From IMG/VR virus record IMGVR_UViG_3300031413_000624: DNA of 64,000 nt, one strand, 5' to 3'. A program made the position numbers and the translations under genes. This DNA is from a virus. How positions within the stretch are numbered: position 1 is the stretch's first letter; each line of letters starts with the position of its first letter. Below, in pieces: positions 10,057 through 57,779 of this stretch. The notes below the pieces were generated by a model. It saw nothing but the letters and a program-made list of their open reading frames with translations, searched no databases and had not been told where the DNA came from.

Positions 10057-10521
10057 ATGGTTGAAACACCTGTCCTCAAACTGGGTAACGAATTTGATGT
10101 ACGTGATTTACAGAAGAAGGTGGCTGAGCTGCGTACAATTATGGTTGAAAGCGTTGAGACTCCTGATGATGTTCGTTTACAGTTGCTGATTCTGAATGCT
10201 GGGTTGGAAAACTTCTTAGAAGGCGAATACGCCGCGGAAGAACCTTCCCGTGACCGTGATGAGGAAATTCGGTTTGCAGATGAAATCAGTGCAGGCTTTG
10301 CTGCTGTGGGAGATAACTATGATGTGAAGTTCATTCACTCATCTATGGTAGAAGAGGTTCTCCAAGAGCAGGCTGCATCTATGGGTTTCTTGGATTCTCT
10401 TCCAGATGTTATTGCGGATGCCATTGACTGGGATAAAGTTGCTGATGTTGCAGCAGCCTCCGAGGATGTTCAGGAAATGTTCATTGATACAGAAGTGTAC
10501 ATTTGTAACCTGTACCTGTGA
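10057..10521 (+). CDS. acidic hypothetical protein
   Basis: ORF. Confidence 0.45.
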   Translation: MVETPVLKLGNEFDVRDLQKKVAELRTIMVESVETPDDVRLQLLILNAGLENFLEGEYAAEEPSRDRDEEIRFADEISAGFAAVGDNYDVKFIHSSMVEEVLQEQAASMGFLDSLPDVIADAIDWDKVADVAAASEDVQEMFIDTEVYICNLYL

Positions 10522-12602: not shown

Positions 12603-13187
12603 TTACATCGTATTGTCAGGATTCTTTAAATCTTGAGGAGCTACCTTGTATGCATACTCGCTGTTCGCTGATAGGTAGTAGACATACTCTACGTTTTTGT
12701 CTTTCGGATCAGTGACAAGAATGTAATGCCTGCGAGCATCCACATCAAGGTAGCCTGCGGTATCCATGATTTCTTTAGCCTCAGTGTCAGTAAGATTTAG
12801 GTATTCATAATGCTTGTGGAACCAGTTCAGATAGTTGTTCTGAACAGCTTCCACTCGCATCTGAGGCTGCACGAAAGCAATTTGCGTGAAGCTAACAACT
12901 GCGCCAACAACTAAAAGGGCGGCTCCACCAAAAGAAATCAGCGCAGGGATACGACGAAACGCAGGTAGAGCTAACCCGAGAATGAGCAGAGCCAGTGGAA
13001 TGGCGAAAAGCCAGTAGTTGAAATCCTCTAAACCTGTCGGATTGGATGGTACATGCCAACCATTGAGGTCAGAGAGTTTGATTTCGTTGTTCATAACGTG
13101 TAGGATTCCTTTTGTGTTTCTGTTCGCAACTTGACCATTGAACTTTCCTATGGTACCCTGTTTTAGTAAATGAGTAAGGAAAATCAT
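12603..13187 (-). CDS. membrane protein (194 aa)
   Basis: ORF with two TM segments. Confidence 0.4.
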   Translation of the reverse strand: MIFLTHLLKQGTIGKFNGQVANRNTKGILHVMNNEIKLSDLNGWHVPSNPTGLEDFNYWLFAIPLALLILGLALPAFRRIPALISFGGAALLVVGAVVSFTQIAFVQPQMRVEAVQNNYLNWFHKHYEYLNLTDTEAKEIMDTAGYLDVDARRHYILVTDPKDKNVEYVYYLSANSEYAYKVAPQDLKNPDNTM

Positions 13188-14088
13188 GTCTCAGCATATT
13201 AAAGTGTTACGCGGTGTTCAGGGTTCTGGTAAATCAACTGAAGCCTTGAAGTGGGTTCGTCAGGACCCTCTGAATCGCGCCCGCGTGAACCGAGATGACA
13301 TCCGTTTGACTAACTTCGGCTCATATGACCTTCCTCAGGAGTTGGAGTATGCTGTTACGAAGATTGAACATCAGCTGATTCGTACACTGTTGAAGGCGAA
13401 GAAGAGCGTTGTTGTTGACAACGTGAACTTGCGTGCAAAGTACGTGAAAGAGTACTTGCTGATTGCTGATGAGTTCAATGTTCCTGTTCTGTATCAGGAT
13501 TTTCCTGTGGAGCTGGAAGTTGCATTAGCTCGTAATGCTGCTCGTGAGCGTAAGGTGCCTGAGGATGTTATTGTCAAGACTCATAAGCGATACATCCAGA
13601 GAGGTAAGTTCCCTGAGTTCCCTCAGCTGAATTACGACATGTCTGGGCTGTACGTTCCCGATGAGACCCTCCCGAAGGCTATCCTGTTGGATGTTGATGG
13701 CACGGCTATGAAGATTGGCAAGCACCGCGGCCCTTATGATTTCGATAAGGTCATTGATGATGAGCCGAACTTCCCTGTCATTACCACTGTGCAGTCCCTT
13801 GTCGCACATGAAGGCTATAAGGTGATTGTCATGTCAGGTCGTGATGAGATTTGCAAGCAAGATACTCTATTCTCTTTGGAAGTTGCAGGTGTTCCTGTTG
13901 ATGAAATCTACATGCGTCCTCAGGGTGACCGCCGCCCTGATACTGTTATCAAGCGTGAGCTGTTTGATGCGAATGTTCGCAACCGTTTTAACGTGTTGTT
14001 CGCACTTGATGACAGAGATGTTGTGATTGACATGTATAGAAAAGACTTGGGCTTGACTGTTTTCCAGGTTGATTACGGGAACTTCTAA
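13186..14088 (+). CDS. polynucleotide 5'-kinase/3'-phosphatase (Pnkp paralog A)
   Basis: P-loop GVQGSGKST in the N-terminal kinase half; HAD phosphatase motif LLDVDGT in the C-terminal half. Confidence 0.8.
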   Translation: MSQHIKVLRGVQGSGKSTEALKWVRQDPLNRARVNRDDIRLTNFGSYDLPQELEYAVTKIEHQLIRTLLKAKKSVVVDNVNLRAKYVKEYLLIADEFNVPVLYQDFPVELEVALARNAARERKVPEDVIVKTHKRYIQRGKFPEFPQLNYDMSGLYVPDETLPKAILLDVDGTAMKIGKHRGPYDFDKVIDDEPNFPVITTVQSLVAHEGYKVIVMSGRDEICKQDTLFSLEVAGVPVDEIYMRPQGDRRPDTVIKRELFDANVRNRFNVLFALDDRDVVIDMYRKDLGLTVFQVDYGNF

Positions 14089-14099
14089 ATCAGTACAGA

Positions 14100-14158
14100 T
14101 AATGCCAGCATAGGAGACGTTTGACTTTCGTCAGATTGTCTGTTATGCTGGCATTATC
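14100..14158. repeat. 15-bp inverted repeat with 32-nt spacer
   Basis: gataatgccagcata ... tatgctggcattatc downstream of pnkp. Confidence 0.4.
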
Positions 14159-14178: not shown

Positions 14179-14394
14179 ATGGATGAAGGTTTCATGCCTG
14201 GAATGATGGCTTCCAACAAGAACCGTGCTGTTAACCACGTTGATGGCGCTATGTTCGATGATGGTTTCTGGCAGCACCGCCGCTTCAAGGGTAAGCGCAA
14301 GGCTGGCGCTCCTACTGGTAGTCGTGGTTGGCGACGTGTTCTCCGCGCCAAGGAGAAGGCCGCTACTCGTCGTGACATCGCTGACAACAGCTGA
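14179..14394 (+). CDS. small basic protein (71 aa), uncertain
   Basis: ORF on the dominant strand; overlapping alternative frames. Confidence 0.2.
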   Translation: MDEGFMPGMMASNKNRAVNHVDGAMFDDGFWQHRRFKGKRKAGAPTGSRGWRRVLRAKEKAATRRDIADNS

Positions 14395-15407: not shown

Positions 15408-16074
15408 TTGAAGCAAGGCGTTGAAGGAGTTCAGGTTTGTTCACATTTGTGAAACCTGAACTCCTTTGCGTTTCCCAGATATGATTCAGCTTTTCTACCA
15501 CTGTTGCAGTTGGAATATGGGTTTTATTCAGAAGAAGGTAATTCGTGTTGGCGCTTCGACCTTCTCCACCAAGTCCTGCTTTACCCGCATTTCGCCCTGT
15601 TCGCTGTACAAAGAAATCCGGGTGAGTGGTGCAAAACTGGAACCCTTTTGCGATGGTTATAGATGCAACAGAGCGAACAATTTCCTGATATGACCATAGC
15701 TGAAAAATTCGCTTATCATACTGCCATGTTTGAGTAAGATGCAGTTGCGGATGGACTTTCCCTAATAGCGAAGGGCGGTCAAAAGCTAACGGTAGGAGGA
15801 AAGCTACTGCATCAGCGAAACTGGCAGCATGTCTAAAATACTTGATCGTTGTATGGTGATGTGGAAGCTTTGGTGGTTCACCTAACACCAACGTTTTCAT
15901 TACTCCTCTTTCCCAGGAGCTTCGGAGAAAATCAAGGGGTTCAGGTACCCAGATTGTAGCACCTGGGAACAAAGGAGTAACTGGGCTAATGTCAATAATG
16001 CGATCGTAGTCTGCAATGTGAATACGACTGAGACCTTCTGCTGGGTCCCATTGCTCAATGGGTTGTGGGTTCAT
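15397..16074 (-). CDS. hypothetical protein
   Basis: Start moved to the internal Met with AAGGA RBS. Confidence 0.4.
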   Translation of the reverse strand: MNPQPIEQWDPAEGLSRIHIADYDRIIDISPVTPLFPGATIWVPEPLDFLRSSWERGVMKTLVLGEPPKLPHHHTTIKYFRHAASFADAVAFLLPLAFDRPSLLGKVHPQLHLTQTWQYDKRIFQLWSYQEIVRSVASITIAKGFQFCTTHPDFFVQRTGRNAGKAGLGGEGRSANTNYLLLNKTHIPTATVVEKLNHIWETQRSSGFTNVNKPELLQRLASITE

Positions 16075-16132
16075 CGTTTCGTATCCTTTTTCACATGCGT
16101 TTCGTAACTTCTTCTTCGTTAGATATATCAGC

Positions 16133-17371
16133 ATGACTACCACTCGTAAACCACCTTATTTGCATGCTGACGGTTCAAATTGTTGGACAAAGCATTGCTC
16201 CCGCCGCACCAAGGAAAGCAATGATCGTGCTTCCTTCTTCAAGCAGGTTGAAAAGACCCCAGCTGCGAAGCTTCCTACCAACCTTCCTCCACTGTCAGCG
16301 TTCCAGAAAGCTCACGCTGAGGGCCGTATTGAGAAGTCTGAACACCCAAATTACCCTTACGTGACCTACAAATACGCGCGTACTACGCAGTTCGCTTCTG
16401 ACTGGGATGATGTCACACTTGCTTCTCGTGGAATCATCTTTAACAAGGAAACCGGAGAAGTTGTTGCACGTCCATTTGCAAAGTTCTTCAACTACAATGA
16501 ACCTTCCGTGCCTACTGATAAACTTCATGGTCGTGTGAGCGTCACTGACAAACTTGACGGTTCATTAGGTATTGGTTACGTTGATGAGGACGGTAAGTTC
16601 AACATTGCTACTTCTGGTAGCTTTATCTCTGAACAGTCTAAACATGCTACTCGCATATACCAAGAGAAGTACGAAGGTAAATGGAATCCAAATCCAAACA
16701 TGACATACATGTGGGAAATTATTTACCCTGAGAACCGTGTTGTTGTCAACTATGGTGATGAGGATGACTTACACCTTATTGGTGCTGTCAATAAGCGCAC
16801 GGGTAAGAGCGTCCCATTAGGTGATATCAAAGAGTGGAAGTGGAAGCGTGCAGAAGAGTACAAAAACATTTCTTCTCTTGACTCTGTGCTTGCCACTCCT
16901 GACCGTGAGAACCGTGAAGGTTTCATTGTCCACTACATTGATACTGACACTCGCGTAAAGTACAAGCATGAGCAGTACTTGAACATTCACCGTGTTGCTA
17001 CTGGTGTTACTTCTAAGACTATCTGGCGTAAGATGTCTTTGGGTGAAGATATGGACAGCTGGAAGAGTGGAATTCCTGAGGAGTTCACTGACTTCATTTC
17101 TGAACGTCAGAACAAAATCCGCGCAAACTACGATAATGAAGTCAGCAAAGTTGTTGCTGACCACGCAAAGTTCAAAGCTTCTATGCCTGCTTCATATGAA
17201 CGTAAAGACTTCGCTGTTACATTGAAGAATTCTTCTGTAGTTCCAGCTGAGAATAAACCATTCATCATGAATTATGAATTCAACGGTAAAGTAGCAACAA
17301 ACGAGGTGCAAGCTCGTAAAATTTGGGAGCGCATCAAGCCTACCGATGAGGATACTTTCTGGAACATGTAA
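16133..17371 (+). CDS. RNA ligase family protein (paralog B) with N-terminal Cys-His motif
   Basis: KLDGS motif I; paralog of 4990..6120. Start MTTTRK.. chosen by analogy with MTTTRE.. of the 38971 gene; NCWTKHC motif. Confidence 0.65.
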   Translation: MTTTRKPPYLHADGSNCWTKHCSRRTKESNDRASFFKQVEKTPAAKLPTNLPPLSAFQKAHAEGRIEKSEHPNYPYVTYKYARTTQFASDWDDVTLASRGIIFNKETGEVVARPFAKFFNYNEPSVPTDKLHGRVSVTDKLDGSLGIGYVDEDGKFNIATSGSFISEQSKHATRIYQEKYEGKWNPNPNMTYMWEIIYPENRVVVNYGDEDDLHLIGAVNKRTGKSVPLGDIKEWKWKRAEEYKNISSLDSVLATPDRENREGFIVHYIDTDTRVKYKHEQYLNIHRVATGVTSKTIWRKMSLGEDMDSWKSGIPEEFTDFISERQNKIRANYDNEVSKVVADHAKFKASMPASYERKDFAVTLKNSSVVPAENKPFIMNYEFNGKVATNEVQARKIWERIKPTDEDTFWNM

Positions 17372-17695: not shown

Positions 17696-17716
17696 TTATC
17701 GTCGTTATGACGATAA
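17696..17716. promoter_or_regulatory. palindromic operator-like site TTATCGTC-N5-GACGATAA
   Basis: Perfect 8-bp arms; a TAGAAT hexamer 7 nt downstream (17723-17728); start of the NAD operon. Confidence 0.45.
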
Positions 17717-17763
17717 ACATGTTAGAATATCCTCAGAAGATAATAACAAAGGACACCTTCCTC

Positions 17764-18717
17764 ATGAAAGTATACAACGACACAGTTGTAATGACTGACT
17801 CCCTGATCCGCATGCTTGATGGATATCGCGCTGAACGAGGTTTTAACGCCTCAGAATGGGTTGAGCGTAAAGTTGCTCTCATCAACGCTTACTTCGCGCA
17901 GAGCGGCCTGTCAGGGGCTGTTGTAGGGGTTTCAGGAGGTATTGACTCCGCTGTTGCTCTTTCTCTTGTCGTGAAAGCATCACAGGTGGAAGACAGTCCA
18001 ATCAAGAAGATTGTTCCGATTCTTCTCCCCGCATTTTCCTACACAGGAGCTACCCGTCAGAACGAAGCTACAAACCGAGCAGAAAGCCTGTGCACAAAAC
18101 TTGGACTCGAAGCAGTCATCTTCCATCAGCTCACACCAATGGCTGAAATGATGAATGCAGAATTAGAGAACGTTTTGGGAATTCGGGCAACCCCTTGGGC
18201 TAAAGGCCAGTTAGTTGCATACACCCGAACCCCAATCCTGTACAGCACCTGCTCCATTCTCACGGACGCAGGATATCCAGCCTTAGTCATTGGAACTACA
18301 AATCTGTCAGAAGGTGGATACTTAGGTTATGTCGGTAAAGCCGCTGATGGCATGGTTGACTTACAGGTAGTGAGTGACTTGTACAAATCAGAAGTGTACC
18401 AAGTTGCGGAACTGCTAGAAGTACCAAACCTCATTATGAAAGCAACGCCAACAGGAGACATGTTTGACGGTCGGGATGACGAAACAGTGTTCGGAGCTTC
18501 CTACGACTTCGTGGAACTCTATCACCTCTGGCTGCAAAATGGCTCCGACCCTGAACTTCTGAAAGATGAAACATTCGCAGCAGGAGCGGCGAACCTTGAA
18601 AAGATGCACGCTTACAATGGTCATAAATATCTGTACGGTACACCATCAGTTCATTTGGATATCCTTCGTGCAGACATTCCTGGTGGTTGGAATAACAAAG
18701 CTTGGAGCGCTAAATAA
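17764..18717 (+). CDS. PP-loop ATP pyrophosphatase (NadE-like)
   Basis: SGGIDSAV PP-loop motif; AAAGGA RBS before 17764. Confidence 0.6.
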   Translation: MKVYNDTVVMTDSLIRMLDGYRAERGFNASEWVERKVALINAYFAQSGLSGAVVGVSGGIDSAVALSLVVKASQVEDSPIKKIVPILLPAFSYTGATRQNEATNRAESLCTKLGLEAVIFHQLTPMAEMMNAELENVLGIRATPWAKGQLVAYTRTPILYSTCSILTDAGYPALVIGTTNLSEGGYLGYVGKAADGMVDLQVVSDLYKSEVYQVAELLEVPNLIMKATPTGDMFDGRDDETVFGASYDFVELYHLWLQNGSDPELLKDETFAAGAANLEKMHAYNGHKYLYGTPSVHLDILRADIPGGWNNKAWSAK

Positions 18718-19457
18718 TGGCGACCAAATTTGTCAACCAAATTGACTTCACTATTCCAGCTATCCAACATGAAGTTGAAGTGGAGCCACTTCCTGAGTTA
18801 GACCGTTCAGCAGTGGTTATCCCTAACCTTATCCCAAGCAAAGAACGAGTTCATATCCTCCAAGAACTCAGTAAAGCGAACTGGCAGCCAGTATCCATCA
18901 CTGGAATGTCAGGTAACTGGAAGCCAGGGGATGAAATTGGGTCTTACCGAGCCTCAAACTACACACCAGAATACGCCACTGTATTATGGGACAGAATCAA
19001 ACACGCTTTCCCAACGGTTCGAGTGTTCAATCAGGAAGACAATACTGATTTTGATGACCATGAACTCTGGGAACCTGTTGGAGTTTCTCCACTGCTTCGT
19101 TTCATCAAATACGAAGATGGAGGCTGGCTTGTTGTTCACTATGACGCTCCATATGTTGAAGATGAGGACACTAGGACACTACAAAGCTTTGTTATCTACT
19201 TAGAACAGAGTCCCACGATTGCAGGTGGAGCAACTCGATACCTGCGAGACCCGCAAGCAGGGATTCCTATTGCTCAACGTATTTTAGATGACCAGAAACG
19301 TGCAGCAACCGAGGATGAAGTCCGGCTTCGTTTCACCCCTGAAAATGGAACAGGTGTCATCTTTGACCACAGACTTCTTCACGATGCTGCGCTCGTTCAG
19401 GGCGAAGGTCACAAAATTATTATCCGTACCGACATTATGTACAGGAAAGTCCGATGA
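18717..19457 (+). CDS. 2OG-Fe(II) oxygenase superfamily protein
   Basis: HYDAP (HxD) ... DHRLLH facial-triad arrangement; start/stop overlap with neighbours. Confidence 0.5.
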   Translation: MATKFVNQIDFTIPAIQHEVEVEPLPELDRSAVVIPNLIPSKERVHILQELSKANWQPVSITGMSGNWKPGDEIGSYRASNYTPEYATVLWDRIKHAFPTVRVFNQEDNTDFDDHELWEPVGVSPLLRFIKYEDGGWLVVHYDAPYVEDEDTRTLQSFVIYLEQSPTIAGGATRYLRDPQAGIPIAQRILDDQKRAATEDEVRLRFTPENGTGVIFDHRLLHDAALVQGEGHKIIIRTDIMYRKVR

Positions 19458-20965
19458 AAACAGACCGCTATTTTGATGCGTTATACGAACGCACTCACAG
19501 TGAACAGGATTTAACAACAGCTGGTTGGTTAGAAAAGCCAACACAAGTGAACCAGCAGTTACGGTATTACACAACGCCAGTTGATGCTATCCGTGATGCA
19601 GGCAAGGAAGAAGTCTCTGTTCTGTTTTACCCAGGATGTTTCGCCCCAGTGCATGAAGGTCATATCACTGCAATGCGCTTAGCCAAGGAAGCTGTCGAAG
19701 CGACAGGCGAAACAGTGGTAGCTGGTTTCTTCACACCAGACCATGATGACTACATTATGCGTAAAACGCATGATGAACGTTTCACAGCAGCGAACCGGGT
19801 AGAGCTTCTACATGCAGTAACTAAAACAGAAACATGGATGCAGGTAGACCCTTGGGCTGCTCAGTATGCTCCTACTGATTTGAACTTCACCACATTGTAT
19901 GATCGTTTGAATCAATACCTCAAACGTTGGGTACCAAATGTCAAAGTAAAGCTCTACATGGTGTTTGGTGGAGACAACTACATGTTCGCTAATGCTTTCA
20001 CTGAATATGGGTATGGGGTTTGCGTTCCTCGTGAAGGAGTTTCTATTGACTGGACCACAGTCCATCCTGATGCTCAAAAGCGTGTAGTTCTCAGTACGAA
20101 AAGCAGCACAAATCATTCATCCACAGCGGCCCGAGCAATGTACTCAAACCCTGCTGAAAAAGGTGGTCGGAGTACGATGGGTAAGCGCTACGTCCTTCGC
20201 AACGATTTAGATGCAGCATTTGAGAACACTACGGAGTACCCGAATTATCTTATCGCTCAGACTCTGCAGATTCTCTTCCACTCACATCTTCCAGAGGATA
20301 TCAGTGTCCAAACAGTTGATATTCATGACCAGTTCCAGCATCATCAGGAAAAAGCTGGGATCATTTCAATGGATTCATTTTGGAAAGCTGAATACAATCT
20401 TGACATTACCAGACTCTTCAATGCAGCCGGTGGCCAGAATCATCCATTACGGTACATCAACCGCCCAGGTTCCGATGATTTGCAAACACAAATCAAACGA
20501 ATCCCAGAAGGTGAATATGTACTTGCAGATGACGACATCGCTACTGGTGAAACCATGAAATTTGTTTCCAATGTGTTAGGCACTCACGGCATCAGAATTG
20601 TGGACACTCTAAGTCTTATCGATGAACTCAACACTGACCTGTACGATTTAGCTGACATGAGAGACTATGTGTTAGGGGCAAAGAATGGTGGGTTGACCGT
20701 TGTTGCTCCAAACGGTCAAGTGACACGAATGCCGTACTTTGCTTCCTATGTGAACGTTTCAGCAAGAACACGTATTCAGCCTAATAAAGCTCGCAGTTTC
20801 TCTATTGAAATTTGGAAGCTCAATCGCTCTTTGTACAAGAACAGTAGCCTTACCGTAGGAGACATCAAAGAGCATCAAGATTTCACCCTCTTTGGGTTCT
20901 CAGAGCAGATGCGGCTTGTTGAATTATGTGAGAAGCATTTAGAGCTGTTAGGTGTGCAAAGCTGA
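19454..20965 (+). CDS. nucleotidyltransferase (NMNAT-like, HxGH) fused to a type I phosphoribosyltransferase domain
   Basis: PVHEGH motif N-terminal; VLADDDIATGETM PRPP-binding motif C-terminal. Confidence 0.6.
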   Translation: MKTDRYFDALYERTHSEQDLTTAGWLEKPTQVNQQLRYYTTPVDAIRDAGKEEVSVLFYPGCFAPVHEGHITAMRLAKEAVEATGETVVAGFFTPDHDDYIMRKTHDERFTAANRVELLHAVTKTETWMQVDPWAAQYAPTDLNFTTLYDRLNQYLKRWVPNVKVKLYMVFGGDNYMFANAFTEYGYGVCVPREGVSIDWTTVHPDAQKRVVLSTKSSTNHSSTAARAMYSNPAEKGGRSTMGKRYVLRNDLDAAFENTTEYPNYLIAQTLQILFHSHLPEDISVQTVDIHDQFQHHQEKAGIISMDSFWKAEYNLDITRLFNAAGGQNHPLRYINRPGSDDLQTQIKRIPEGEYVLADDDIATGETMKFVSNVLGTHGIRIVDTLSLIDELNTDLYDLADMRDYVLGAKNGGLTVVAPNGQVTRMPYFASYVNVSARTRIQPNKARSFSIEIWKLNRSLYKNSSLTVGDIKEHQDFTLFGFSEQMRLVELCEKHLELLGVQS

Positions 20966-24146: not shown

Positions 24147-24258
24147 AATTTTCTCTCTTATCTCTCAATGAAGTGTTCTGTAACACGAACAAACACCACT
24201 ATACAAAACCCCACTGACATTTGTCAAGCTTGAGATAACAAGATGATATAGTGGGCCT

Positions 24259-25035
24259 ATGAGTTATATTAGTCTGAGTACACGAGAAAACGAAACCATC
24301 GCCTACGGCACAGGATCAGATAGGGCGAATTTTAGCTTTCTTGCTGAGCGAATGTTCGTAGGATTGTTTGCTATGGACGACCCGTATATCTGGGAGAAGA
24401 TTGTTCCTCACGTCAAAAATGACCCATATGTGGACAAACGAACTGCGCTCATGAATGATATCAAAGGGTACAGTTTTGAAAGTTCAGTTTTGCATGTGGA
24501 TGGAGAGCCTATTGACCTGTTTACTGCAAAATTGAATACAGCTCTTCGATACGGTTCTGATGTAATGAAGCTTGCTGCTCGCCTGCATGGGCAAAGCGAA
24601 CTACATTGTTGGGTTGCGGGTAAAAACCGTGCATGGCTTGCTGACATCATGGAAAATGCTCCAACCACAGTATTCCGCGTCAATACTGAAACAGGTGAAA
24701 GCTACTGGAAACCCATCATTGATGCTCTCCGTGAAACAGATGAAGGGGATGCGGTTTTCTCCTATTCCGTTAGTTCTGGCTTCCCTCTTGTCCAATACGA
24801 TAAGAAGTTCCTTGCTTCGTTGAAAGAAATTGAAGATGAAGAAGATTACGACGAAGGAGAAGCGCGATATCTGTGGAATGAGAAACCTCTTGAAGAACGC
24901 TGGGAGAATACCATTGAAGTGTTCAAAGAGGAAACAGAGTCGCAAATGTTAGAGCTGACTCCTGATAATTGGGACTCGTACTACTTTGGTCAAGGCGCAG
25001 ATGCTTTGAGCATCCTTGAAAAACTGGGTGTTTAA
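24259..25035 (+). CDS. hypothetical protein (258 aa)
   Basis: ORF. Confidence 0.45.
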   Translation: MSYISLSTRENETIAYGTGSDRANFSFLAERMFVGLFAMDDPYIWEKIVPHVKNDPYVDKRTALMNDIKGYSFESSVLHVDGEPIDLFTAKLNTALRYGSDVMKLAARLHGQSELHCWVAGKNRAWLADIMENAPTTVFRVNTETGESYWKPIIDALRETDEGDAVFSYSVSSGFPLVQYDKKFLASLKEIEDEEDYDEGEARYLWNEKPLEERWENTIEVFKEETESQMLELTPDNWDSYYFGQGADALSILEKLGV

Positions 25036-25128: not shown

Positions 25129-25974
25129 ATGACCACTTTACAGAAGCACATCATTGAAACCCTCGGAGTGAAAGCGAAAGTCAACCCAGAGGAAGAGTTC
25201 CGCACTCGTGTAGACTTCCTCAAAGCTTTCACTAAAAATGCAGGAACACGTGGATTCGTCCTCGGGATCAGTGGAGGGCAGGATAGTGCTCTGGCTGGAT
25301 ACGTTGCTCAGACAGCTGTTCGTGAACTCCGTGATGAAACAGGCAAAGACTATGAATTCCTTGCCCTGCTCCTTCCATACGGTACACAGCGGGACGGGGA
25401 TGAAGCAGTAACCATCGCAAAAGACTTTATCAAAGCCGACCAGGTAATTGAATACAACATCAAAGACACTGTAGACGCTTTCGCAAACACCTTCAACACT
25501 ATTGCAGATGCTGACCCTGCAAACGGTGACAACCTTGCCGACTACCACAAAGGTAACGTCAAAGCACGTGTTCGCGCCATCACACAGTACGCATATGCTG
25601 GACAGCGACAGCTTCTGGTTGTTGGGACCGACCATGCAGCAGAAGCTGTCAGCGGCTTTTTCACGAAGTTCGGAGATGGTGCTGCTGACATTCTCCCTCT
25701 TAGCGGTTTGAACAAACGCCAGGGAAAAGAAGTGCTTCGCTTCCTGGGTGCTCCTGAGTTTGTTATCACTAAGGCTCCTACTGCTGACCTTTTGGACACT
25801 AACGCAGGTCAGGCTGATGAGACTGAACTTGGCATCACCTACGATGTGCTGGATGACTACCTTGAAGGCAAGACTGTCGCAGAAGCTGCTCAGCAGAAGA
25901 TTGAACTTCGTTACCTGGTGACTGAACACAAGCGTCAGCAGCCTGTTGACCCTTTTGCTGACTGGTGGAAGTAA
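25129..25974 (+). CDS. nadE: NH3-dependent NAD+ synthetase
   Basis: [12 protein letters not shown]-loop; length and overall pattern of NadE. Confidence 0.85.
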
Positions 25975-26387: not shown

Positions 26388-26423
26388 ATGAGAAGTTTTC
26401 CTTCTCTGTGATACACTTCCGAG

Positions 26424-27212
26424 ATGCTTCGGAAAGTCATTATTCGCACCCTGCTGTCCATCGGTGTAGTCTATTTACTCAACGCTGCCATTTTGTTCTT
26501 CTTCCAGCCTGTTGATGTTCAAACAGGAACTGCCTCCGTTGTCAAAACGCAGGAGTTCGGTGGGTTTAAAATTCTCACTGTTCCTCATCTGCGTTCAGGC
26601 GGAATCGGGGGTTGGTCAGCGGAAGCAGGAGGTTATGTAGATATGCTTTCTCCTGACGAAACCGCATACGTGAATCCTCATATTGCTGGGGACAACCTCA
26701 CGCAAACATCGTACTTATACCGGCATGAGTTTACTCACGTGTTACAGAAACAATTAGTTGCAAAAGTATCTGGCGGATATCCAAGTGCATGGAACCCTGT
26801 CCGATCAACTATTTACTACGTGAATCTTATTCGTTTGAATAATGATTTGGAAAAGCTGATGCCAAAGATGAATGAAGATCAGCAAGTTGTTGCAAAAGGG
26901 TTGGAATCTGCTGCAGAATGTTACGCTCAACCGTATTCAGAGAAGAGCGAAGAAGCTGTTTACTATAAAGCCCCTTATATCTTTCCTCGATACTGCAATG
27001 CTGAACAAGTCGCTATTGCAACGAAGCTATTCTCAGGAAAATGGCCTAAACCTTTGACTGTTGAGGAGAAGAAAAAACTCACTCCAGTTAACATCACAAC
27101 AGTAGACCCACAGAAGCTTGCAGAGAAAGAGCATCAGCAGTTCTTGAAAACTATGAAGCAGCTTATCAATTCAGCGCAAGACCTTGCGGACAAAGCGAAG
27201 CAGCAGAAATAG
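26424..27212 (+). CDS. membrane-anchored HExxH zincin-like protein (DUF4157-like)
   Basis: N-terminal TM; HEFTHVLQ motif. Confidence 0.45.
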   Translation: MLRKVIIRTLLSIGVVYLLNAAILFFFQPVDVQTGTASVVKTQEFGGFKILTVPHLRSGGIGGWSAEAGGYVDMLSPDETAYVNPHIAGDNLTQTSYLYRHEFTHVLQKQLVAKVSGGYPSAWNPVRSTIYYVNLIRLNNDLEKLMPKMNEDQQVVAKGLESAAECYAQPYSEKSEEAVYYKAPYIFPRYCNAEQVAIATKLFSGKWPKPLTVEEKKKLTPVNITTVDPQKLAEKEHQQFLKTMKQLINSAQDLADKAKQQK

Positions 27213-42618: not shown

Positions 42619-44025
42619 ATGATTGCTAAGCTTATTAAATCGTCACGAGGTGCTATTGACCTGGCCTCTATACTCGTAGCGGTCATTATTGTTGGCCTTA
42701 TTTCTGGTGTTGTTTCTGTTAGCGTCTTTGCTGTCATTCCATGGACTCATGATAACGCCGCTAAGACTCATCTTGGCTCTATCGCTGTAGCGCAAGCTTC
42801 TTACAAAGGAGCCTATGAAAAATACGGGGACTATAAAGAATTAGTCAAAGAAGAGCTTCTTCCTGTACGAGAAAAAACTTGCTCAGTTACTTCAAACCAA
42901 GGTAGAACCTATACCTCAGCCACACAATCACCTACAGGTAAAGTCTTCATCAATACGAATACTGTTTCTCAGCCATGGCAAGCAGCGGTCGGTGAAACTA
43001 CCTGTTTAGGGACAGTGAAAGAAAACAACGAATTAGAGCCACTGCCACCAGCTACTGAACCAACTCCTACGGTTCCAACGGTAACTCCGAAACCAGGTAC
43101 GGAAAGCAGTTTTACACTGCGTTGCGATAAAACAACTTCAATGCTTTTACCAACAGCATCAGTAAATGCATCAGCGCAATGGAGTGATGGTGTGGAACAG
43201 TCCGCGACAACGGGTTCGTTCAATCAACGAACACTTGCCGCAGGCGTGACCTATAAAGTTACGATTACTGGGACGTTTGGGGTGCTGAGTATGCTTCCCC
43301 TGAATATTGACCAAAAGAATTGTGTTCGGTCGATGGATTTATGGGGTTCTGCCAGTGCTACTGTTGTAGCTGATTATGCTTTTGCCGGGGCTAATAATTT
43401 GACTTCTATCCCTCAGAACATTCCAGCAACAGTCACCTCAGTAGCGGGTATGTTCCAATCTAATAAGACATTCAATCAGGATTTGAGTACATGGGATACT
43501 GCAAACATCAAAAATATGAGCAATATGTTCAATGACTCAATATACACGAAGTCATTGAATAGTTGGAACGTTTCTAATGCTACAAATCTCAGTTTTATGT
43601 TTGCAAGTTCCTCCTACAACCAACCATTAGATAATTGGAAAACGGCTAATGTTCTTAGCATGGAGGGGATGTTCCAGAACAATCTTGTGTTCAATCAAAA
43701 TATTTCCAGCTGGAATACCACAAATTTGACTTCCACTGCATCTATGTTTGCAGGAGCTAAACTGTTCAATCAGCCATTGAACACTTGGACCGTGAATAAT
43801 GTTGTCAATATGAATAGCATGTTCAAAAATGCTACAAGCTTCAATCAGCCATTGAACAACTGGAATACATCTAAGGTGACAAACGTCAGTGGTATGTTCT
43901 TGAATGCCTCATCATTTAGTCAAAATCTTAGTGGATGGAAACTCCCTAATATTCTTGTATTCCTTGATTTTGCTCTGGGAAGTAAACTCAACATACTTCA
44001 ATTACCAAAACTGCCAATCTTATAG
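42619..44025 (+). CDS. surface protein with pilin-like N-terminal anchor and six tandem DUF285/BspA-like 26-aa repeats
   Basis: N-terminal hydrophobic helix; FNQ-L-W-T-N-MF repeats x6. Confidence 0.55.
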   Translation: MIAKLIKSSRGAIDLASILVAVIIVGLISGVVSVSVFAVIPWTHDNAAKTHLGSIAVAQASYKGAYEKYGDYKELVKEELLPVREKTCSVTSNQGRTYTSATQSPTGKVFINTNTVSQPWQAAVGETTCLGTVKENNELEPLPPATEPTPTVPTVTPKPGTESSFTLRCDKTTSMLLPTASVNASAQWSDGVEQSATTGSFNQRTLAAGVTYKVTITGTFGVLSMLPLNIDQKNCVRSMDLWGSASATVVADYAFAGANNLTSIPQNIPATVTSVAGMFQSNKTFNQDLSTWDTANIKNMSNMFNDSIYTKSLNSWNVSNATNLSFMFASSSYNQPLDNWKTANVLSMEGMFQNNLVFNQNISSWNTTNLTSTASMFAGAKLFNQPLNTWTVNNVVNMNSMFKNATSFNQPLNNWNTSKVTNVSGMFLNASSFSQNLSGWKLPNILVFLDFALGSKLNILQLPKLPIL

Positions 44026-44146: not shown

Positions 44147-45268
44147 ATGGATAGTGTACCATCCCCAGTTAAAACAATTTCATTAGTATTTCAAAGTTCC
44201 CGCGCTGCCATAGACTTAGCCTCCATCATGGTTGGTGTCATCATCATTGGCCTTATTGGTAGTGTCATTGGCGCAACGGTTTTTGCAGTCATTCCCTGGG
44301 CGCAGGACAATGCAGCCCGAGCCTCCCTTTCCCAAGTCCGAACAGCAGAAGATGCTCAAAGAGGACTCAAAGAAAAATATGCTGGGCATGAAGCACTCAG
44401 CGATAATGGATTTTTACAAAGCCAACCAGGTCTAGCTGTTCGCACTAACGACGCTGGTACCTGCTATGTTGGCGTTATTGTTTCAGCAACAGGAAACATG
44501 TTCTGGACTTCGGACAAAACAGGCATAGCTGCTTATAAGAGCACAGCGCTACCAACCAGTCCTTGCTTAGATGTCACAGGACCAGGTAACTTAGCTGCTG
44601 TAACTTCACCTACTACTGGTGGGACAGCTGCTTCTATTGCTTCGAAAGTTACAGAAGACGGTGCTGGAAGTTATGAAACAAACGGTTCAGGCGGTTCTTC
44701 AACCTCATTATCTGGTCGTGCATGGTATGCCTACTATCGTGGCTCTTTCAACGAAAAGCAAAATGCTTCTCTTCCCTTACTCAAACAGCTTACTGGAGAA
44801 CAAGTAACACCAACAACATCAGCTCAGCATACAAACTTGTGGCTCAACGTCTACCACGTTCATGCTTATGCTGATGGCAAAGAACTGAAAGTATCCGGAG
44901 ATAATGATGCAGTAGACCATCCATACACAGGGTTTGACATCAATATTTCTTACGATAAAATCAATAACACCATTTTGTATTACTTCCATAACAACGCAGG
45001 GACTTCTGTGATTGGTGATAATAGCGATGCAACTATGACCAGGTTATGGAAAAATGGCTATGTTACATTTGAAGTGCCAGGATACACAGGAACAAACGTA
45101 TTGCATTTCAATGCTCAAAACCCTCGTTCATCTGACCCAAGTAACACTAACCGTCTTTCCGATTGGACAGGAACACTTAAGTGCGGTGAGGGATACGGTA
45201 ATGATAATAACTGTGCAAGTTTGAGCAGTTACGGATACAACTGGCAGAGCATTATTCCTAAATCCTAA
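44147..45268 (+). CDS. secreted/anchored protein, paralogous N-terminus to the 42619 product
   Basis: AIDLASIMVGVIIIGLIGSV... about 60% identical to the N-terminus of the upstream gene. Confidence 0.5.
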   Translation: MDSVPSPVKTISLVFQSSRAAIDLASIMVGVIIIGLIGSVIGATVFAVIPWAQDNAARASLSQVRTAEDAQRGLKEKYAGHEALSDNGFLQSQPGLAVRTNDAGTCYVGVIVSATGNMFWTSDKTGIAAYKSTALPTSPCLDVTGPGNLAAVTSPTTGGTAASIASKVTEDGAGSYETNGSGGSSTSLSGRAWYAYYRGSFNEKQNASLPLLKQLTGEQVTPTTSAQHTNLWLNVYHVHAYADGKELKVSGDNDAVDHPYTGFDINISYDKINNTILYYFHNNAGTSVIGDNSDATMTRLWKNGYVTFEVPGYTGTNVLHFNAQNPRSSDPSNTNRLSDWTGTLKCGEGYGNDNNCASLSSYGYNWQSIIPKS

Positions 45269-45274
45269 GCATCT

Positions 45275-45335
45275 CAGCATGTCTTCACTATACTTGACAA
45301 CTCCAATAACTCTGTGGTATAGTGAAGACATGCTG
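45275..45335. promoter_or_regulatory. 18-bp perfect inverted repeat enclosing a TTGACA-N18-TATAGT promoter
   Basis: cagcatgtcttcactata ... tatagtgaagacatgctg; -35 at 45294-45299, -10 at 45318-45323. Confidence 0.55.
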
Positions 45336-45457
45336 AATGTTTGACATATTTCTTGATTAGATAACCTCTCCATATAAGAGATGGTTCACTCGCAAACCCT
45401 GCGTTGAGGTACCCTCCGCAGTGATTGAGCTGTCTCGATTAAGAAAAGAAGTATGTT

Positions 45458-46066
45458 TTGGAACAGTACCCTTCAATTGATAAGATTATTCGCAATACTC
45501 ACATCTATGCTTACGATAAGTTAGATGGCTCCAACATTCGTGCTGAGTGGACTCGTAAGACTGGGTTCACAAAATTCGGTTCCCGCCGTCAGCTCATTGA
45601 CGAAAGTCACAGTTTGCTGGGTGAAGCTATCCCGTTGTTTAACGACAAATATGCAGATGCCTTAGATGAAATTTTCAGAAAGCAGAAATATCAGAAAGCA
45701 ACAGCATTCTTTGAGTTCTATGGGGAGAACAGCTTCGCAGGATTCCATGAAGATGAGCCTCACGATGTGACACTTTTCGATGTACATATTTATAAGCAAG
45801 GTCTGATGTCACCTCAGGAGTTTAACAAGGTCTTTAAACACGTTGATACCGCGCCCTTGCTTTTTCAAGGGAAGCCAACTGCTGAGTTTGTTGAGTCTGT
45901 GCAGGCAGGCACCTTAGAAGGCATGACCTTTGAGGGTGTTGTCTGCAAAGCAGGTTATGATAATCGGAACAAGTTAGCTTCATTCAAAATCAAGAATAAA
46001 GCTTGGTTAACTCGCTTGAAAGATAAGTGTGGGAATGATGAGAAAATGTTCACCGCGTTAGCATAA
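45458..46066 (+). CDS. small KxDG nucleotidyltransferase (RNA/DNA ligase-like)
   Basis: YDKLDGSNIRAEW motif I; 202 aa. Confidence 0.5.
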   Translation: MEQYPSIDKIIRNTHIYAYDKLDGSNIRAEWTRKTGFTKFGSRRQLIDESHSLLGEAIPLFNDKYADALDEIFRKQKYQKATAFFEFYGENSFAGFHEDEPHDVTLFDVHIYKQGLMSPQEFNKVFKHVDTAPLLFQGKPTAEFVESVQAGTLEGMTFEGVVCKAGYDNRNKLASFKIKNKAWLTRLKDKCGNDEKMFTALA

Positions 46067-46082
46067 AGTTGCTGTGTGAAAA

Positions 46083-46120
46083 GAACCCCTTAGCCAGAGC
46101 TAAGGGGTTCTTTTCTTCTT
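46083..46120 (+). terminator. intrinsic terminator with T-tract
   Basis: gaacccctta...taaggggttc followed by ttttcttctttt. Confidence 0.7.
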
Positions 46121-46165
46121 TTACTACTGATAGTATATAGATGGGACATAGAAGAAGGAAACCCA

Positions 46166-47605
46166 ATGTGTAGAAATAAAGAAGAAGGCGGTCGCCGCTG
46201 TACCGATCACAATGCATTCGGACAGCAGATCAGAAACCTTCAAGCGAAAAAGCAGTATCATGCAAAATATGGTCACACTGACAAAGTAACTTCGGTTGTT
46301 GAAGAAATGGATGCTCTTCGTGACAAGAAGCAGCATCTCTTAGAAGATGGAGGAACTGTTCTTCCATACACGATGCCATTGACCCCGAATGCGGAAAGAG
46401 TCCTCAACCAGCTCCGTGAAGACGGGTATGAGCCTTATGTTGTTGGAGGAAGTGTTCGTGACGCTCTTCTCGGATTAGACTCAAAGGATGTTGACATTGA
46501 AGTCTATAAAGCTACACCAGAAGAAGTCATTGCTTCCCTTCGTAAAATTGGTCAAGTGGATGAAGTGGGTAAATCATTTGGTGTCTTGAAAATCCAAATT
46601 GGGGGAGAAGACTTTGATGTCTCTCTTCCTCGTAAAGACTCTAAAATTGGTGACGGACACAGAGGGTTCACTGTTGAAGTAACTCCTGAACTCTCACTCC
46701 ATGAAGCAACTGCTCGTCGTGATTTCACCATCAATGCTCTCATGTATGACAACGAAATGGGATTCATCGTTGACAAGCACGGTGGTTTGAAAGATTTGGA
46801 GAAAGGTCATCTCCGTCATGTTTCAGAAGCTTTTGATGAGGACCCACTCCGTGTTCTTCGTGGAGTACAGATGGCTTCACGTTTTGATATGGAACTCCAC
46901 CCAGACACAGTAGTCAAAGCTCAAACACTGAAAGACCAGTTCGGTGATTTGGCTCGAGAGCGAGTCCAAACTGAATTCCAGAAGCTGTACCAGAAAGGTA
47001 AAGCTCCTCACAAAGCGTTCAAGCTTTTGCAGGATACAGGTTGGGACGCAAACTTCTCTGGTGTTGCAGAAGTGAATGGAAAATCTCTGCGTCGTAATCT
47101 GCAAAGAACTCAGGAGTTGACTGACCAAGGAGTCATCCCTAAGGAGAAAGGTGCATACATCCTTTCAGCGAACATTGCATCTCATCTGAATGATAAAGAT
47201 GCAAGAAACTTCTTGACATACACTACTGTTGGTGATGATTTGAAGAACAAGTCATACAACCTTTCTCGTGTTGAGCTACCAGTGAAGCAAGGAAAAGCTT
47301 CTTTGCGAGCATGGGCAAAAGGCATGCCTCGCCACGTCACCATTCAAGACTGGGTTTTACTCAGTAAAGCCAAAGGTGACAAGGAAGTAGCAGAGCGTAT
47401 TGAACGCAAAGCAGAAAAACTTGGCATTTTGCACAGCCCTGAATCTGACATGGTATCAGGAGATGATGTACTTGCTGCTTTCCCTGAACGTAAACCAGGT
47501 CGTTGGATGAAAGAAGCCTTAGATGCAACTCGTAACGCTCAGTACTCTGATGTGTTCCGTGACCGCGAAAAAGGTATTGCCTGGGTCAAAGCAAACATTA
47601 GCTGA
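46166..47605 (+). CDS. cca: CCA-adding tRNA nucleotidyltransferase with N-terminal Cys-His motif
   Basis: GGSVRDALLGLDSKDVDIEV polymerase-beta motif; RRDFTINAL; N-terminal MCRNKEEGGRRCTDH. Confidence 0.8.
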   Translation: MCRNKEEGGRRCTDHNAFGQQIRNLQAKKQYHAKYGHTDKVTSVVEEMDALRDKKQHLLEDGGTVLPYTMPLTPNAERVLNQLREDGYEPYVVGGSVRDALLGLDSKDVDIEVYKATPEEVIASLRKIGQVDEVGKSFGVLKIQIGGEDFDVSLPRKDSKIGDGHRGFTVEVTPELSLHEATARRDFTINALMYDNEMGFIVDKHGGLKDLEKGHLRHVSEAFDEDPLRVLRGVQMASRFDMELHPDTVVKAQTLKDQFGDLARERVQTEFQKLYQKGKAPHKAFKLLQDTGWDANFSGVAEVNGKSLRRNLQRTQELTDQGVIPKEKGAYILSANIASHLNDKDARNFLTYTTVGDDLKNKSYNLSRVELPVKQGKASLRAWAKGMPRHVTIQDWVLLSKAKGDKEVAERIERKAEKLGILHSPESDMVSGDDVLAAFPERKPGRWMKEALDATRNAQYSDVFRDREKGIAWVKANIS

Positions 47606-47690
47606 CCTAAAAGAATGAACACATGTGGGAGCAACTAAAGCTATACAGTTGCTCCCACATGTGTTATAGTAGAGTTTTCTATAAGAAAGA

Positions 47691-57191: not shown

Positions 57192-57779
57192 ATGACAAAG
57201 GGTTTGCTTATCGTTGACGTGCAGAACGATTTTATTGAAGGGGGTAGCCTGGCAGTCGCAGGAGGAGAGAAAGTCGCTCTAACGCTTGCAGAGCACCTCC
57301 TGGATGCTGATTACCATGCGCTCATCACCACTCAGGACTGGCACATTGAGCCTGGAAACCATTGGGCAGAAACTCCCGACTATGTGGACACCTGGCCTGT
57401 GCATTGCGCTGCAAACACTGCTGGTGCATCGGTACGCCCTGAGCTGGCGGCTGCCATTGTTTCCAAGGTCAGCGAACAGCGAAGCCTTCGGTATTTGCGC
57501 ATCGTCAAGGGTGAGTATGAAGCAGCTTACTCAGGTTTTGAAGGCCGCGACTTTCTTGGAGGGAATGAGAAGGTTCCTACCCTTATCCGTGAGCTTGGTG
57601 TAGATGAACTGGACATTGTAGGACTGGCGACAGACCATTGTGTTCGCGCTACTGTTCTGGACGCTCTGAAAGCGGGATTCAAGGTAAACGTCCTCACCGA
57701 CTATGTTGCAGGTGTCGACCCTGAGCGCTCCAAAGCAGCTCTTGCTGAAATGGAAACAGCAGGCGCAACTCTCGTCTAA
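57192..57779 (+). CDS. pncA: isochorismatase-family hydrolase, nicotinamidase (PncA)-like
   Basis: LLIVDVQNDF; catalytic GLATDHCV. Confidence 0.7.
   Translation: MTKGLLIVDVQNDFIEGGSLAVAGGEKVALTLAEHLLDADYHALITTQDWHIEPGNHWAETPDYVDTWPVHCAANTAGASVRPELAAAIVSKVSEQRSLRYLRIVKGEYEAAYSGFEGRDFLGGNEKVPTLIRELGVDELDIVGLATDHCVRATVLDALKAGFKVNVLTDYVAGVDPERSKAALAEMETAGATLV

Follow-up and report, generated by a model that had tools for sequence, protein, structure and literature searches.

Within the 64,000-nucleotide (nt) stretch of IMG/VR virus record IMGVR_UViG_3300031413_000624 analyzed here (hereafter, the window), the gene for a minimal RNA ligase of 202 amino acids (aa) is preceded by a conserved leaderless open reading frame (ORF) of four codons, coupled to a covarying anti-Shine-Dalgarno (anti-SD) helix. 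This combination is the new part of the locus and its most interesting one. It was overlooked by an earlier interpretation made from the letters of the DNA (the sequence-only reading), which had described the region as an operon of a ligase and a CCA-adding enzyme behind a promoter embedded in a perfect hairpin; all sequence elements named there are present, within 1-2 nt of where it had placed them. We read the locus as two neighboring but separately bounded tRNA-repair genes in a recurrent replicon of ~880 kb, with a leaderless leader-ORF translational switch ahead of the ligase and a gene-end hairpin overlapping the ligase promoter. Taken jointly, these readings of genes, switch, and hairpin command slightly better than even confidence. 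The locus is laid out as follows (coordinates are those of the window; bp, base pairs):

44147-45268 (+): upstream gene, 373 aa, with a pilin-like N-terminus and no match to any Pfam family; its stop codon lies 6 nt ahead of the hairpin
45274-45336 (+): perfect inverted repeat of 20 bp, with arms at 45274-45293 and 45317-45336 and a 23-nt loop
45294-45323 (+): sigma-70-type promoter, with the -35 box TTGACA at 45294-45299, an N18 spacer, and the extended -10 box TGgTATAGT at 45315-45323
45330-45344 (+): predicted transcription start (A45330) and leaderless four-codon mini-ORF, ATG CTG AAT GTT TGA (MLNV, stop)
45343-45354 (+): 5' arm of the closing helix, the anti-SD segment GACATATTTCTT, starting within the mini-ORF stop codon
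45378-45436 (+): central stem-loop of the leader, lineage-variable in sequence
45446-45457 (+): 3' arm of the closing helix, AAGAAGTATGTT, spanning the ribosome-binding region of the ligase and abutting its TTG start
45458-46066 (+): complete but domain-minimal ATP-dependent RNA ligase consisting of the nucleotidyltransferase domain, 202 aa, TTG start
45518-45535, 45710-45724, 45932-45949, and 45983-45994 (+): ligase motifs I (KLDGSN), III (FEFYG), IV (EGVVCK), and V (FKIK), respectively
46078-46123 (+): intrinsic terminator, with a 17-bp stem (46078-46115), a 4-nt loop, and a T-rich tail
46129-46152 (+): conserved element specific to the CCA gene, GATAG (46129-46133) and GGGACATAGA (46143-46152)
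46166-47605 (+): class II tRNA nucleotidyltransferase of the CCA-adding type, 479 aa, with an N-terminal extension of ~70 aa starting MCRNKEEGGRRC
46445-46462, 46715-46738, and 46838-46861 (+): motif A (GGSVRD), RRDFTINA, and EDPLRVLR of the CCA enzyme, respectively
47618-47670 (+): hairpin downstream of the CCA gene, with a 19-bp perfect stem (47618-47665), overlapping the next promoter-like site

The mini-ORF is preceded by a -35 box and an extended -10 box in the window and in the related loci L019, L020/L022, L021, L015, L016, L099, L100/L101, L102, L103, and L123. The gap between the -10 box and the ATG measures exactly 6 nt in 10 of 11 sequences (7 nt in L102), and the nucleotides that fill it are not conserved. 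Since the ATG starts 7 nt past the -10 box, its A should be the first transcribed base and the ORF should be leaderless; in the window, transcription from the extended -10 box is expected to begin at A45330, which fits the start near 45330 proposed by the sequence-only reading. The ORF always comprises four codons and a stop codon and encodes MLNV, MLNY (L020/L022), MLNI (L099), or MFLY (L103), and the differences among the MLN-type ORFs are limited to the exchanges CTG/CTA, AAT/AAC, GTT/GTC, GTT/ATT, GTT/TAC, and TGA/TAA. Ten lineages thus carry a conserved short ORF ahead of the ligase on what should be one mRNA, as a leader-ORF attenuator would need. More distant relatives (seven lineages) carry at the same place upstream ORFs (uORFs) of 5-7 codons that are led by a Shine-Dalgarno (SD) sequence (MKVLV, MKVSK, MFKVVFN, MIKVAIA, and others). 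The combination of extended -10 box, 6-nt gap, and ATG also stands before five full-length genes of the window, so that leaderless expression seems normal in this system. The five sites are:

24244-24261 (+): TGnTAnnnT-N6-ATG, gene start at 24259
26409-26426 (+): TGnTAnnnT-N6-ATG, gene start at 26424
31453-31470 (+): TGnTAnnnT-N6-ATG, gene start at 31468
56195-56178 (-): TGnTAnnnT-N6-ATG, gene start at 56180
35845-35828 (-): TGnTAnnnT-N6-ATG, gene start at 35830

Elsewhere in the window, at 10018-10064, an extended -10 box (TGgTAGTAT) is followed after 5 nt by a 10-codon ORF (MIKKEVNNNG) that runs into the start of the gene at 10057 and may be another leaderless uORF. The remaining repair genes in the window (Rnl1-like, Pnkp) showed no leader similar to that of the ligase.

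The second component of the leader is the closing helix. In the minimum-energy fold of every lineage, the stop-codon region of the mini-ORF pairs with the ribosome-binding site (RBS) of the ligase and closes a leader of 92-128 nt (128 nt in the window), and each of the predicted folds leaves the first ~13 nt single-stranded. The window arms, GACATATTTCTT and AAGAAGTATGTT, have counterparts that differ by lineage yet remain complementary, including ACTATTTCC/GGAAATAGT in L015, TAATTATTTCCT/AGGAAATAATTA in L102, and TAAGTTAAA/TTTAACTTA in L099. Because the helix register shifts by 1-3 nt, with bulges, between lineages, we compared duplex energies of cognate and non-cognate arm pairs rather than scoring column-wise covariation on a MAFFT alignment of the leaders. 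Cognate pairs had a mean energy of -12.4 kcal/mol versus -6.4 kcal/mol for non-cognate pairs, and none of 100,000 permutations was as low; across 17 lineages, including those with SD-led uORFs, the values were -12.5 and -6.7 kcal/mol (0 of 200,000 permutations). Ranked against all 33-nt segments of its own locus, the cognate arm stood at a median of 3.4% (Fisher p = 2e-7). In the predicted folds, the RBS is thus paired with bases that a ribosome translating the leader ORF would occupy, which is the arrangement of an attenuator.

Neither component matches a catalogued RNA family: an Rfam search returned no family at gathering score in the window and only tRNAs in 20 related loci, and a permissive Rfam search of 45200-46200 yielded only sub-threshold matches of microRNA precursors to the hairpins. 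No description of a leaderless mini-ORF combined with an anti-SD helix was found in Rfam or in the literature searched. The closest parallels in layout are the leaders of ermC, cat, and cmlA, in which an upstream short ORF is followed by an RBS sequestered by a segment that the leader-ORF ribosome must cover. The window leader shares this layout, as predicted from its sequence, but its ORF has four codons, lacks a Shine-Dalgarno sequence, stands at the 5' end, and would control a ligase rather than a resistance gene. Polycysteine leaderless ORFs serve as attenuators in mycobacteria. One report describes leaderless transcripts and small leaderless ORFs as common in mycobacteria (PMC4633059), and another describes Escherichia coli mRNAs with a 5'-terminal AUG before an SD-led gene (PMC4965119). 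Compared with these mycobacterial and E. coli leaderless ORFs, the window ORF is shorter, has the conserved sequence MLN[VIY], and is accompanied by a covarying anti-SD helix in front of a ligase gene.

The gene behind this leader, announced in the sequence-only reading as a 202-aa KxDG nucleotidyltransferase at 45458, is an RNA ligase by its motifs: the signature reads K21-L-D-G-S-N, and PF09414 is matched with 41.8 bits against a cut-off of 27. The homologues begin at the same residue (MExYPSI), and in 21 of them K21, D23, G24, S25, and N26 of motif I, E86 of motif III, E159 and K164 of motif IV, and K177 and K179 of motif V are invariant. A sequence search against PDB chains gave no match, which made a fold comparison necessary; with the AlphaFold2 model (pLDDT 94.4), Foldseek retrieved the nucleotidyltransferase domains of T4 Rnl2, Naegleria Rnl5 (NgrRnl), REL1, archaeal Rnl3, and T4 Rnl1 (E = 1e-8 to 1e-5). 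The window ligase shares the covalent nucleotidyltransferase fold and motifs I, III, IV, and V with T4 Rnl2, which provides the best solved-structure matches (2HVR, 1S68), but the two proteins are just 15-16% identical. T4 Rnl2 requires its C-terminal domain for overall nick sealing. The window ligase lacks this domain, for it ends after the nucleotidyltransferase domain at 202 aa: motif V is followed by just two short helices (residues 181-201 in the model), with nothing else appended. The C-terminal helical domain that a strict assignment to the Rnl2 family calls for is therefore absent, and the flanking modules of Rnl1, Rnl3, and Rnl5 are missing as well. Biochemical study of the mini-ligase would reveal what the extra domains of Rnl1-Rnl5 contribute and may yield a small-ligase tool.

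This nucleotidyltransferase-only ligase of 202 aa is widespread and tied to the tRNA arrays of huge phages. As many as 1,761 database proteins match it at E <= 0.001, and the best 120 are mostly 201-203 aa long. The nearest homologue in a cultured phage is ORF354 of XacN1, which is annotated as a hypothetical protein and is 43% identical over the full length. T4 Rnl2 and its jumbo-phage paralogues, for example in Xanthomonas phage XacN1, occur in large phages together with Pnkp, Rnl1, and CCA enzymes (PMC7824862). Among loci with less than 60% ligase identity, 40 of 108 carry a tRNA gene at most 500 nt away from the ligase, and many of these ligases are embedded in, or stand first in, arrays of 12-17 tRNAs, one of them on a 619-kb IMG/VR contig; in the closest clade, the neighbors are a CCA enzyme, Pnkp, an Rnl1-like ligase, or Tpt1. 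In L104, L031-L034, and L036, the mini-ligase is fixed between tRNA-Ala(tgc) and tRNA-Ala(cgc), and the tRNA genes of the surrounding arrays are sorted according to amino acid (Arg, Ser x4, Gly, Ala, Trp, Cys). A putative role of the ligase in tRNA repair is well supported by association, and the pair of ligase and CCA enzyme genes agrees with the set of RNA-repair genes known from very large phages.

Other clades precede the mini-ligase with a promoter, an SD-led ORF of 20-35 codons (for example, MFLTTDKTKTTTTTTKQVAAVSFLCLGIS and MLMIVGKAIAVAKTTGKTVSLNGLFLHKL), and a strong intrinsic terminator. These loci with long leader ORFs are:

L039, L084, L088, L089/L092, L091, L093/L098, and L095 (~80-105 nt 5' of the ligase)
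L074, L078, and L080

Wherever enough downstream sequence is available, a tRNA gene or array follows the ligase, except in L089/L092, and the arrangement looks like the attenuator of a ligase-tRNA operon. Folding with the ribosome-covered segment masked, carried out with terminator/antiterminator attenuation by the ~28-codon ORFs in mind, always retained the terminator and produced no antiterminator. The relatives of the window locus may use other leader-ORF designs, with SD-led ORFs of 5-7 codons in one and ~28 codons plus a terminator before ligase-tRNA-array operons in the other.

The ligase gene lies on a metagenome contig of 878,479 bp (ERZ27247405 k141_830180; samples ERZ27247405 and SRR8869675), and several data sets contain these proteins again, on single contigs of 828-883 kb. 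The sequence-only reading spoke of a phage; the attribution is plausible but falls short of proof. We regard the replicon as probably a huge phage or phage-like element. The window encodes a set for RNA repair and nicotinamide adenine dinucleotide (NAD) metabolism that comprises two Rnl1-like ligases, two T4-type Pnkp proteins, two NAD synthases, a cytidylyltransferase-like protein, an isochorismatase, and an ADP-ribosyltransferase, and a similar RNA-repair and NAD arsenal has been described for jumbo phages (PMC7824862). The genes of this set are located at:

4990-6120 (-)
13186-14088
16058-17371
34439-35482
17707-18717
25129-25974
19454-20965
57192-57779
32385-33293

Also encoded are a 1015-aa KTSC/amidoligase protein, NucS, RNase H, and a Rv2179c-like exoribonuclease. 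The chief rival, a minority view that we nonetheless take seriously, is that the window belongs to a very small cellular genome, in which the ligase and CCA enzyme would be housekeeping or stress-repair genes of the cell. The window carries genes for DnaK, ClpB, GyrB/GyrA, a major facilitator superfamily (MFS) transporter, NlpC/P60, and pilin-like/DUF285 proteins, DnaG adjoins it, and YidC occurs in one relative; moreover, relatives of ~790 kb are not in IMG/VR, and the window shows no DNA similarity to known phages. However, the clade is absent from 185,579 GTDB species genomes (11 distant, scattered matches), and yet it appears as a single ~880-kb contig in many samples. Across ~86 kb, there is no ribosomal protein, aminoacyl-tRNA synthetase, or tRNA gene, and the scan of window proteins in particular gave no match to a ribosomal protein or aminoacyl-tRNA synthetase family, whereas the same ~86 kb hold three RNA ligases, two Pnkp proteins, NAD-salvage genes, ADP-ribosyltransferases, and the giant KTSC-amidoligase protein. 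The known phages with the mini-ligase are all 385-642 kb long, and three of them (LR745206, LR756502, and the Lak phages) also encode DnaK; in IMG/VR, the ligase is found on contigs of up to 619 kb, and a phage of 841 kb has been published. The 10 kb to the right of the window (L125, 12622-22445) contain genes for the DnaG primase, a second N6/N4 methyltransferase, another ADP-ribosyltransferase, NERD and metallophosphatase proteins, and, as a weak match, Pth2; none of these genes is a hallmark of phages or of cells. A GyrA scan of IMG/VR found nothing, and the matches of the window in PHROGs were functional only. The leaderless genes, the hairpins devoid of U tracts, and NucS hint at an actinobacterium-like host or organism, which we mention as a lead only.

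On the translational switch proposed for the ligase leader, transcription would begin at A45330, making the AUG of the MLNV ORF the first three bases of the mRNA. The 12 nt that start inside the mini-ORF stop codon would pair with the 12 nt immediately 5' of the ligase TTG, and because of this pairing the ligase RBS would be closed on the free leader. A 70S ribosome on an ORF of 15 nt must cover the 5' arm; translation of the mini-ORF would therefore unwind this arm and open the ligase start site, and a ribosome that lingers would hold the site open and allow more ligase to be made. Lingering could be caused by a lack of intact or charged tRNA-Leu, tRNA-Asn, or tRNA-Val or by slow termination. 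The ligase would most likely reseal broken tRNA, while the adjoining enzyme would rebuild 3' CCA ends. In RNA that reads through from upstream, and only there, the 20-bp hairpin would fold and also hide the mini-ORF start. What the analysis establishes are the sequence elements and how they are conserved, the lineage-specific complementarity of the arms, the folds and motifs of the proteins, and the gene neighborhoods; the stall-dependent induction and the substrates of both enzymes are predictions. If the switch works as proposed, a phage-like element would tie RNA repair to the state of translation without a regulator protein, unlike RtcR, and a four-codon leaderless ORF would join the bacterial leader peptides. 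RtcR responds to damaged tRNA, and the RtcR-rtcBA system resembles the window locus in that an RNA-repair ligase is apparently made on demand; it differs in that RtcR is a sigma-54 transcriptional activator and RtcB a ligase of another class, whereas the control proposed here is translational and dispenses with a regulator protein.

The switch may sense tRNA damage. In its specific form, the mini-ORF would be a sensor of tRNA integrity: host anticodon nucleases or CCA-trimming enzymes would deplete tRNA-Leu, tRNA-Asn, or tRNA-Val, the ribosome would stall, the anti-SD helix would open, and the ligase would be switched on; in relatives with M-x-K-V peptides, the sensed tRNAs would be those for Lys and Val. 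We offer this version tentatively, as a possibility rather than an expectation. It is suggested by the role of the ligase, the conservation of Leu-Asn (or Lys-Val) codons, and the substrate preference of defense nucleases, at least one of which prefers tRNAs with U-rich anticodons, including tRNA-Lys(UUU) (PMC11042736). If true, it would amount to a protein-free feedback between translation damage and repair on phage-like replicons of ~0.8-1 Mb.

Several observations speak against the switch. With 15 nt in ~10 lineages, the ORF offers too little sequence for a formal coding test, and its product in L103 is another peptide, MFLY. L020, L100, L103, and L123 have a helix that is weak or does not stand out, ranking at 8-20% of local segments, and in three SD-led relatives the 3' arm stops 15-18 nt short of the start codon, which is left uncovered. 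The transcription start, the translation of the mini-ORF, and the induction are all predictions. Two alternatives keep the leader and discard the sensing. In the first, which we consider unlikely, the mini-ORF is translated as a constitutive enhancer that senses nothing, leaderless initiation briefly melting the helix to set a fixed low level of ligase. The architecture is identical to that expected of the switch, and a 5'-terminal AUG before an SD-led gene is described for E. coli mRNAs as influencing downstream translation (PMC4965119); however, the Leu-Asn codons are conserved, as are leader ORFs of three different architectures across the family, and this hints, without proving it, that codon identity matters. 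In the second, to which we assign a somewhat lower probability, the conserved 5' end AUGCUGAAUGUUUAA would be an untranslated RNA signal, such as a site for a protein, a small RNA, or an RNase, with the helix as a constitutive stabilizer or a thermosensor. The element is merely 15 nt long, ~10 lineages are insufficient to prove coding, and AA(U/G)GUU, as a nucleotide sequence, reappears in the SD-led uORFs of remoter relatives. Nevertheless, the single-base differences are all third-position, stop-preserving, or Val/Ile changes, the ORF length is constant, and the ATG lies precisely 6 nt past the -10 box, as at the five real leaderless genes; furthermore, the remoter relatives place clearly SD-led short ORFs at the same position, and the element has no Rfam match.

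The translational switch operates, as proposed, downstream of a promoter that the sequence-only reading had correctly placed inside an inverted repeat, with TTGACA-N18-TATAGT at 45294-45323 and the -10 box in the right arm; the repeat itself is perfect over 20 bp rather than the 18 bp reported there. The promoter matches 11 of 12 consensus positions, TG at 45315-45316 makes it an extended -10 promoter, and a promoter of the same architecture stands 5' of the ligase in 10 related lineages. As RNA, the stem is lengthened by G-U pairs to 45266-45344 and is highly stable (-39.5 kcal/mol, z = -9.1, with none of 200 shuffled sequences as stable). Two explanations had been offered for this geometry, an operator clamping the promoter and an overlap of terminator and promoter, and the evidence favors the second. 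In all, 22 perfect hairpins (stem length, 12-21 bp) occur in the window, compared with 0-1 in shuffled sequence, so the hairpin ahead of the ligase far exceeds chance without being unique there; 16 of the 22 begin 3-17 nt past a stop codon, as does the one upstream of the ligase (6 nt), and most gene-end hairpins of the window have no T tract behind them. The promoter-in-hairpin geometry recurs at 14098-14158, directly 3' of a Pnkp gene, where TTGACT (14121), N17, and TGtTATGCT (14144) are arranged such that the -35 box and the spacer occupy the loop and the -10 box forms the first bases of the right arm. This second hairpin is followed at 14194-14394 by an uncalled ORF of 66 codons for a very basic protein. 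In the hairpin at 47618-47665, downstream of the CCA gene, the loop contains TATACA, and TGtTATAGT stands where the right arm ends. L019 has a 98% identical ligase and a leader that is near-identical from the ATG on, but its sequence upstream of the ATG is unrelated and has no long repeat; in other relatives, the repeat is missing or is present only in versions of 6-18 bp with altered spacing. No further copy of the arms was found within the window.

Membership in the gene-end class, the second example, the absence in L019, and the lack of further arm copies lead us to read the 20-bp repeat as best explained by a gene-end or terminator hairpin of the upstream gene that overlaps the ligase promoter, and not as an operator. 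"I-shaped" factor-independent terminators without a U tract have been described for mycobacteria, and the window hairpins resemble them in having long perfect stems just past stop codons, mostly without a T tract; the hairpin upstream of the ligase differs in its 23-nt loop, which carries the -35 box and spacer, and its termination activity is a prediction. A stable stem soon after the stop codon, as an intrinsic terminator requires, is present at 45274-45336. The case for a terminator is weakened by the loop of 23 nt instead of 3-8 and by the lack of a clean U tract (the tail is AATGTTTGACAT), and a terminator consensus scan did not report the hairpin. It is weakened further by L015, in which a separate terminator precedes an 18-bp repeat that also covers the mini-ORF; because L015 already carries that upstream terminator, the repeat may do more than terminate. 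In L020, L022, and L015, as in the window, the ligase transcript opens with bases to which the upstream arm is the reverse complement (TCAGCATG ... CATGCTGA), and for this reason the hairpin in read-through RNA would bury the mini-ORF start. Repression through a DNA operator, with a dimeric or looping repressor on both arms clamping the -35 and -10 boxes, is highly improbable: the palindrome is perfect and brackets the promoter, and shorter palindromes with the same CATGCT(GA) bases flank the -10 box in L020, L022, and L015, but the AGCATG-CATGCT half-sites are spaced by 12, 12, 14, and 47 nt in four lineages, which is unfit for one protein, seven lineages (L019, L021, L016, L099, L100, L102, and L123) keep the promoter and leader without the palindrome, neither conserved half-sites and spacing nor copies at other promoters of the window were found, and the hairpin belongs to the genome-wide gene-end class. 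The promoter within the hairpin is in itself ordinary and shows terminator-promoter overlap in compact genomes.

The second gene of the locus encodes, as the sequence-only reading held, a CCA-adding enzyme with the family Cys motif, and its ORF (46166-47605, 479 aa) is intact rather than truncated. PF01743 is matched with 84.6 bits against a cut-off of 23, PF12627 is also present, and the Pol-beta head domain contains motif A (GGxVRD ... DxD) and motifs B-E (RRD, DxxGGxxDL, EDxxR, ERxxxE). Residues 76-474 align from head to tail with residues 8-393 of the 404-aa class II CCA-adding enzyme of B. stearothermophilus (1MIV; E = 2e-29), and the neck, body, and tail domains are accounted for by this alignment; the window enzyme shares the full domain span and motifs A-E with 1MIV and differs from it by the N-terminal extension of ~70 aa. 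CCA enzymes are reported to be the second most common RNA-end-repair nucleotidyltransferases of jumbo phages (PMC7824862), and the known phage enzymes cover at most 63% of the window enzyme, with 33-41% identity. Its assignment is tempered by the NCBIfam equivalog cut-offs, all of which it misses (the best is PRK13299, 169.5 versus 290 bits, with PcnB close); because of this, the CCA specificity, as against CC-adding, A-adding, or poly(A) polymerase activity, is a deduction, and more generally the activities of both the ligase and the CCA enzyme are deduced from sequence and predicted fold.

The designation of the two genes as an operon holds with respect to their co-oriented adjacency, but they are separately bounded. 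The terminator that the sequence-only reading placed between them is present, with its 17-bp stem (46078-46115) and T-rich tail, and the CCA gene has a conserved motif of its own. The genes are co-oriented and adjacent in the window, L019, L015, L099, and L021, with one gene between them in L020/L022; in relatives with ligase identity of 66% or less, the CCA gene is not found in the flanks, so that adjacency is a trait of the closest clade only. Five of the seven ligase-CCA intergenic regions contain a long stable hairpin; that of L099 has just a weak one (-10.5 kcal/mol), and the 20-bp hairpin of L015 encloses the conserved CCA element in its loop instead of standing before it, with the CCA start codon in the right arm. 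The element GATAG-N6-9-GGGACATAGA precedes the CCA start in all seven intergenic regions, including those of L020/L022 with the intervening gene, and has no other occurrence within the window. Being conserved in every intergenic region and unique in the window, it most likely provides the CCA gene with start signals of its own, and the element at 46129-46152 is probably the promoter and start region of this gene; co-transcription of the ligase and CCA genes by read-through is possible. GGGACATAG was also considered as a general promoter or late-gene motif and was rejected, as it occurs within the window only in the region upstream of the CCA gene. The sequence-only reading had further suggested that the enzyme would serve tRNAs encoded without CCA. 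The window has no tRNA gene at all; in the arrays of the relatives L104, L031, and L081, 1-5 of 11-16 tRNAs lack an encoded CCA, which is suggestive only, because these are other genomes.

The conserved N-terminal extension of the CCA enzyme begins MC-x9-C, and 82 of 119 homologues match the pattern searched, MC-x(6-10)-RC. Three relatives of the enzyme (P0254, P0256, and P0263; 640-646 aa) carry a fused P-loop kinase domain (AAA_33/KTI12/Zeta_toxin), and this fusion would join a kinase and a CCA-adding enzyme in one repair protein. Seven otherwise unrelated proteins of the window open with C-x6-10-C-x1-3-[H/D/P], namely the CCA enzyme (MCRNKEEGGRRC), a GNAT protein, an HD-domain protein, an ADP-ribosyltransferase, the 1015-aa KTSC/amidoligase protein, and two proteins of unknown function (other examples of the opening are MCNAIRDGGQRC, CRAKHPETCWKHG, CYAKNPDTCKNHG, and CKAANPAACTDPRCP). 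The N-terminal Cys motif may be a shared targeting or packaging signal. The starts of the seven genes are:

21573
32385
39829
46166
48197
52503
57848

Upstream of the ligase leader, the neighboring proteins encoded at 42619-44025 and 44147-45268 have a common pilin-like hydrophobic N-terminus (RGAIDLASILVAVIIVGLI and RAAIDLASIMVGVIIIGLI, respectively), and the former additionally contains DUF285 repeats.

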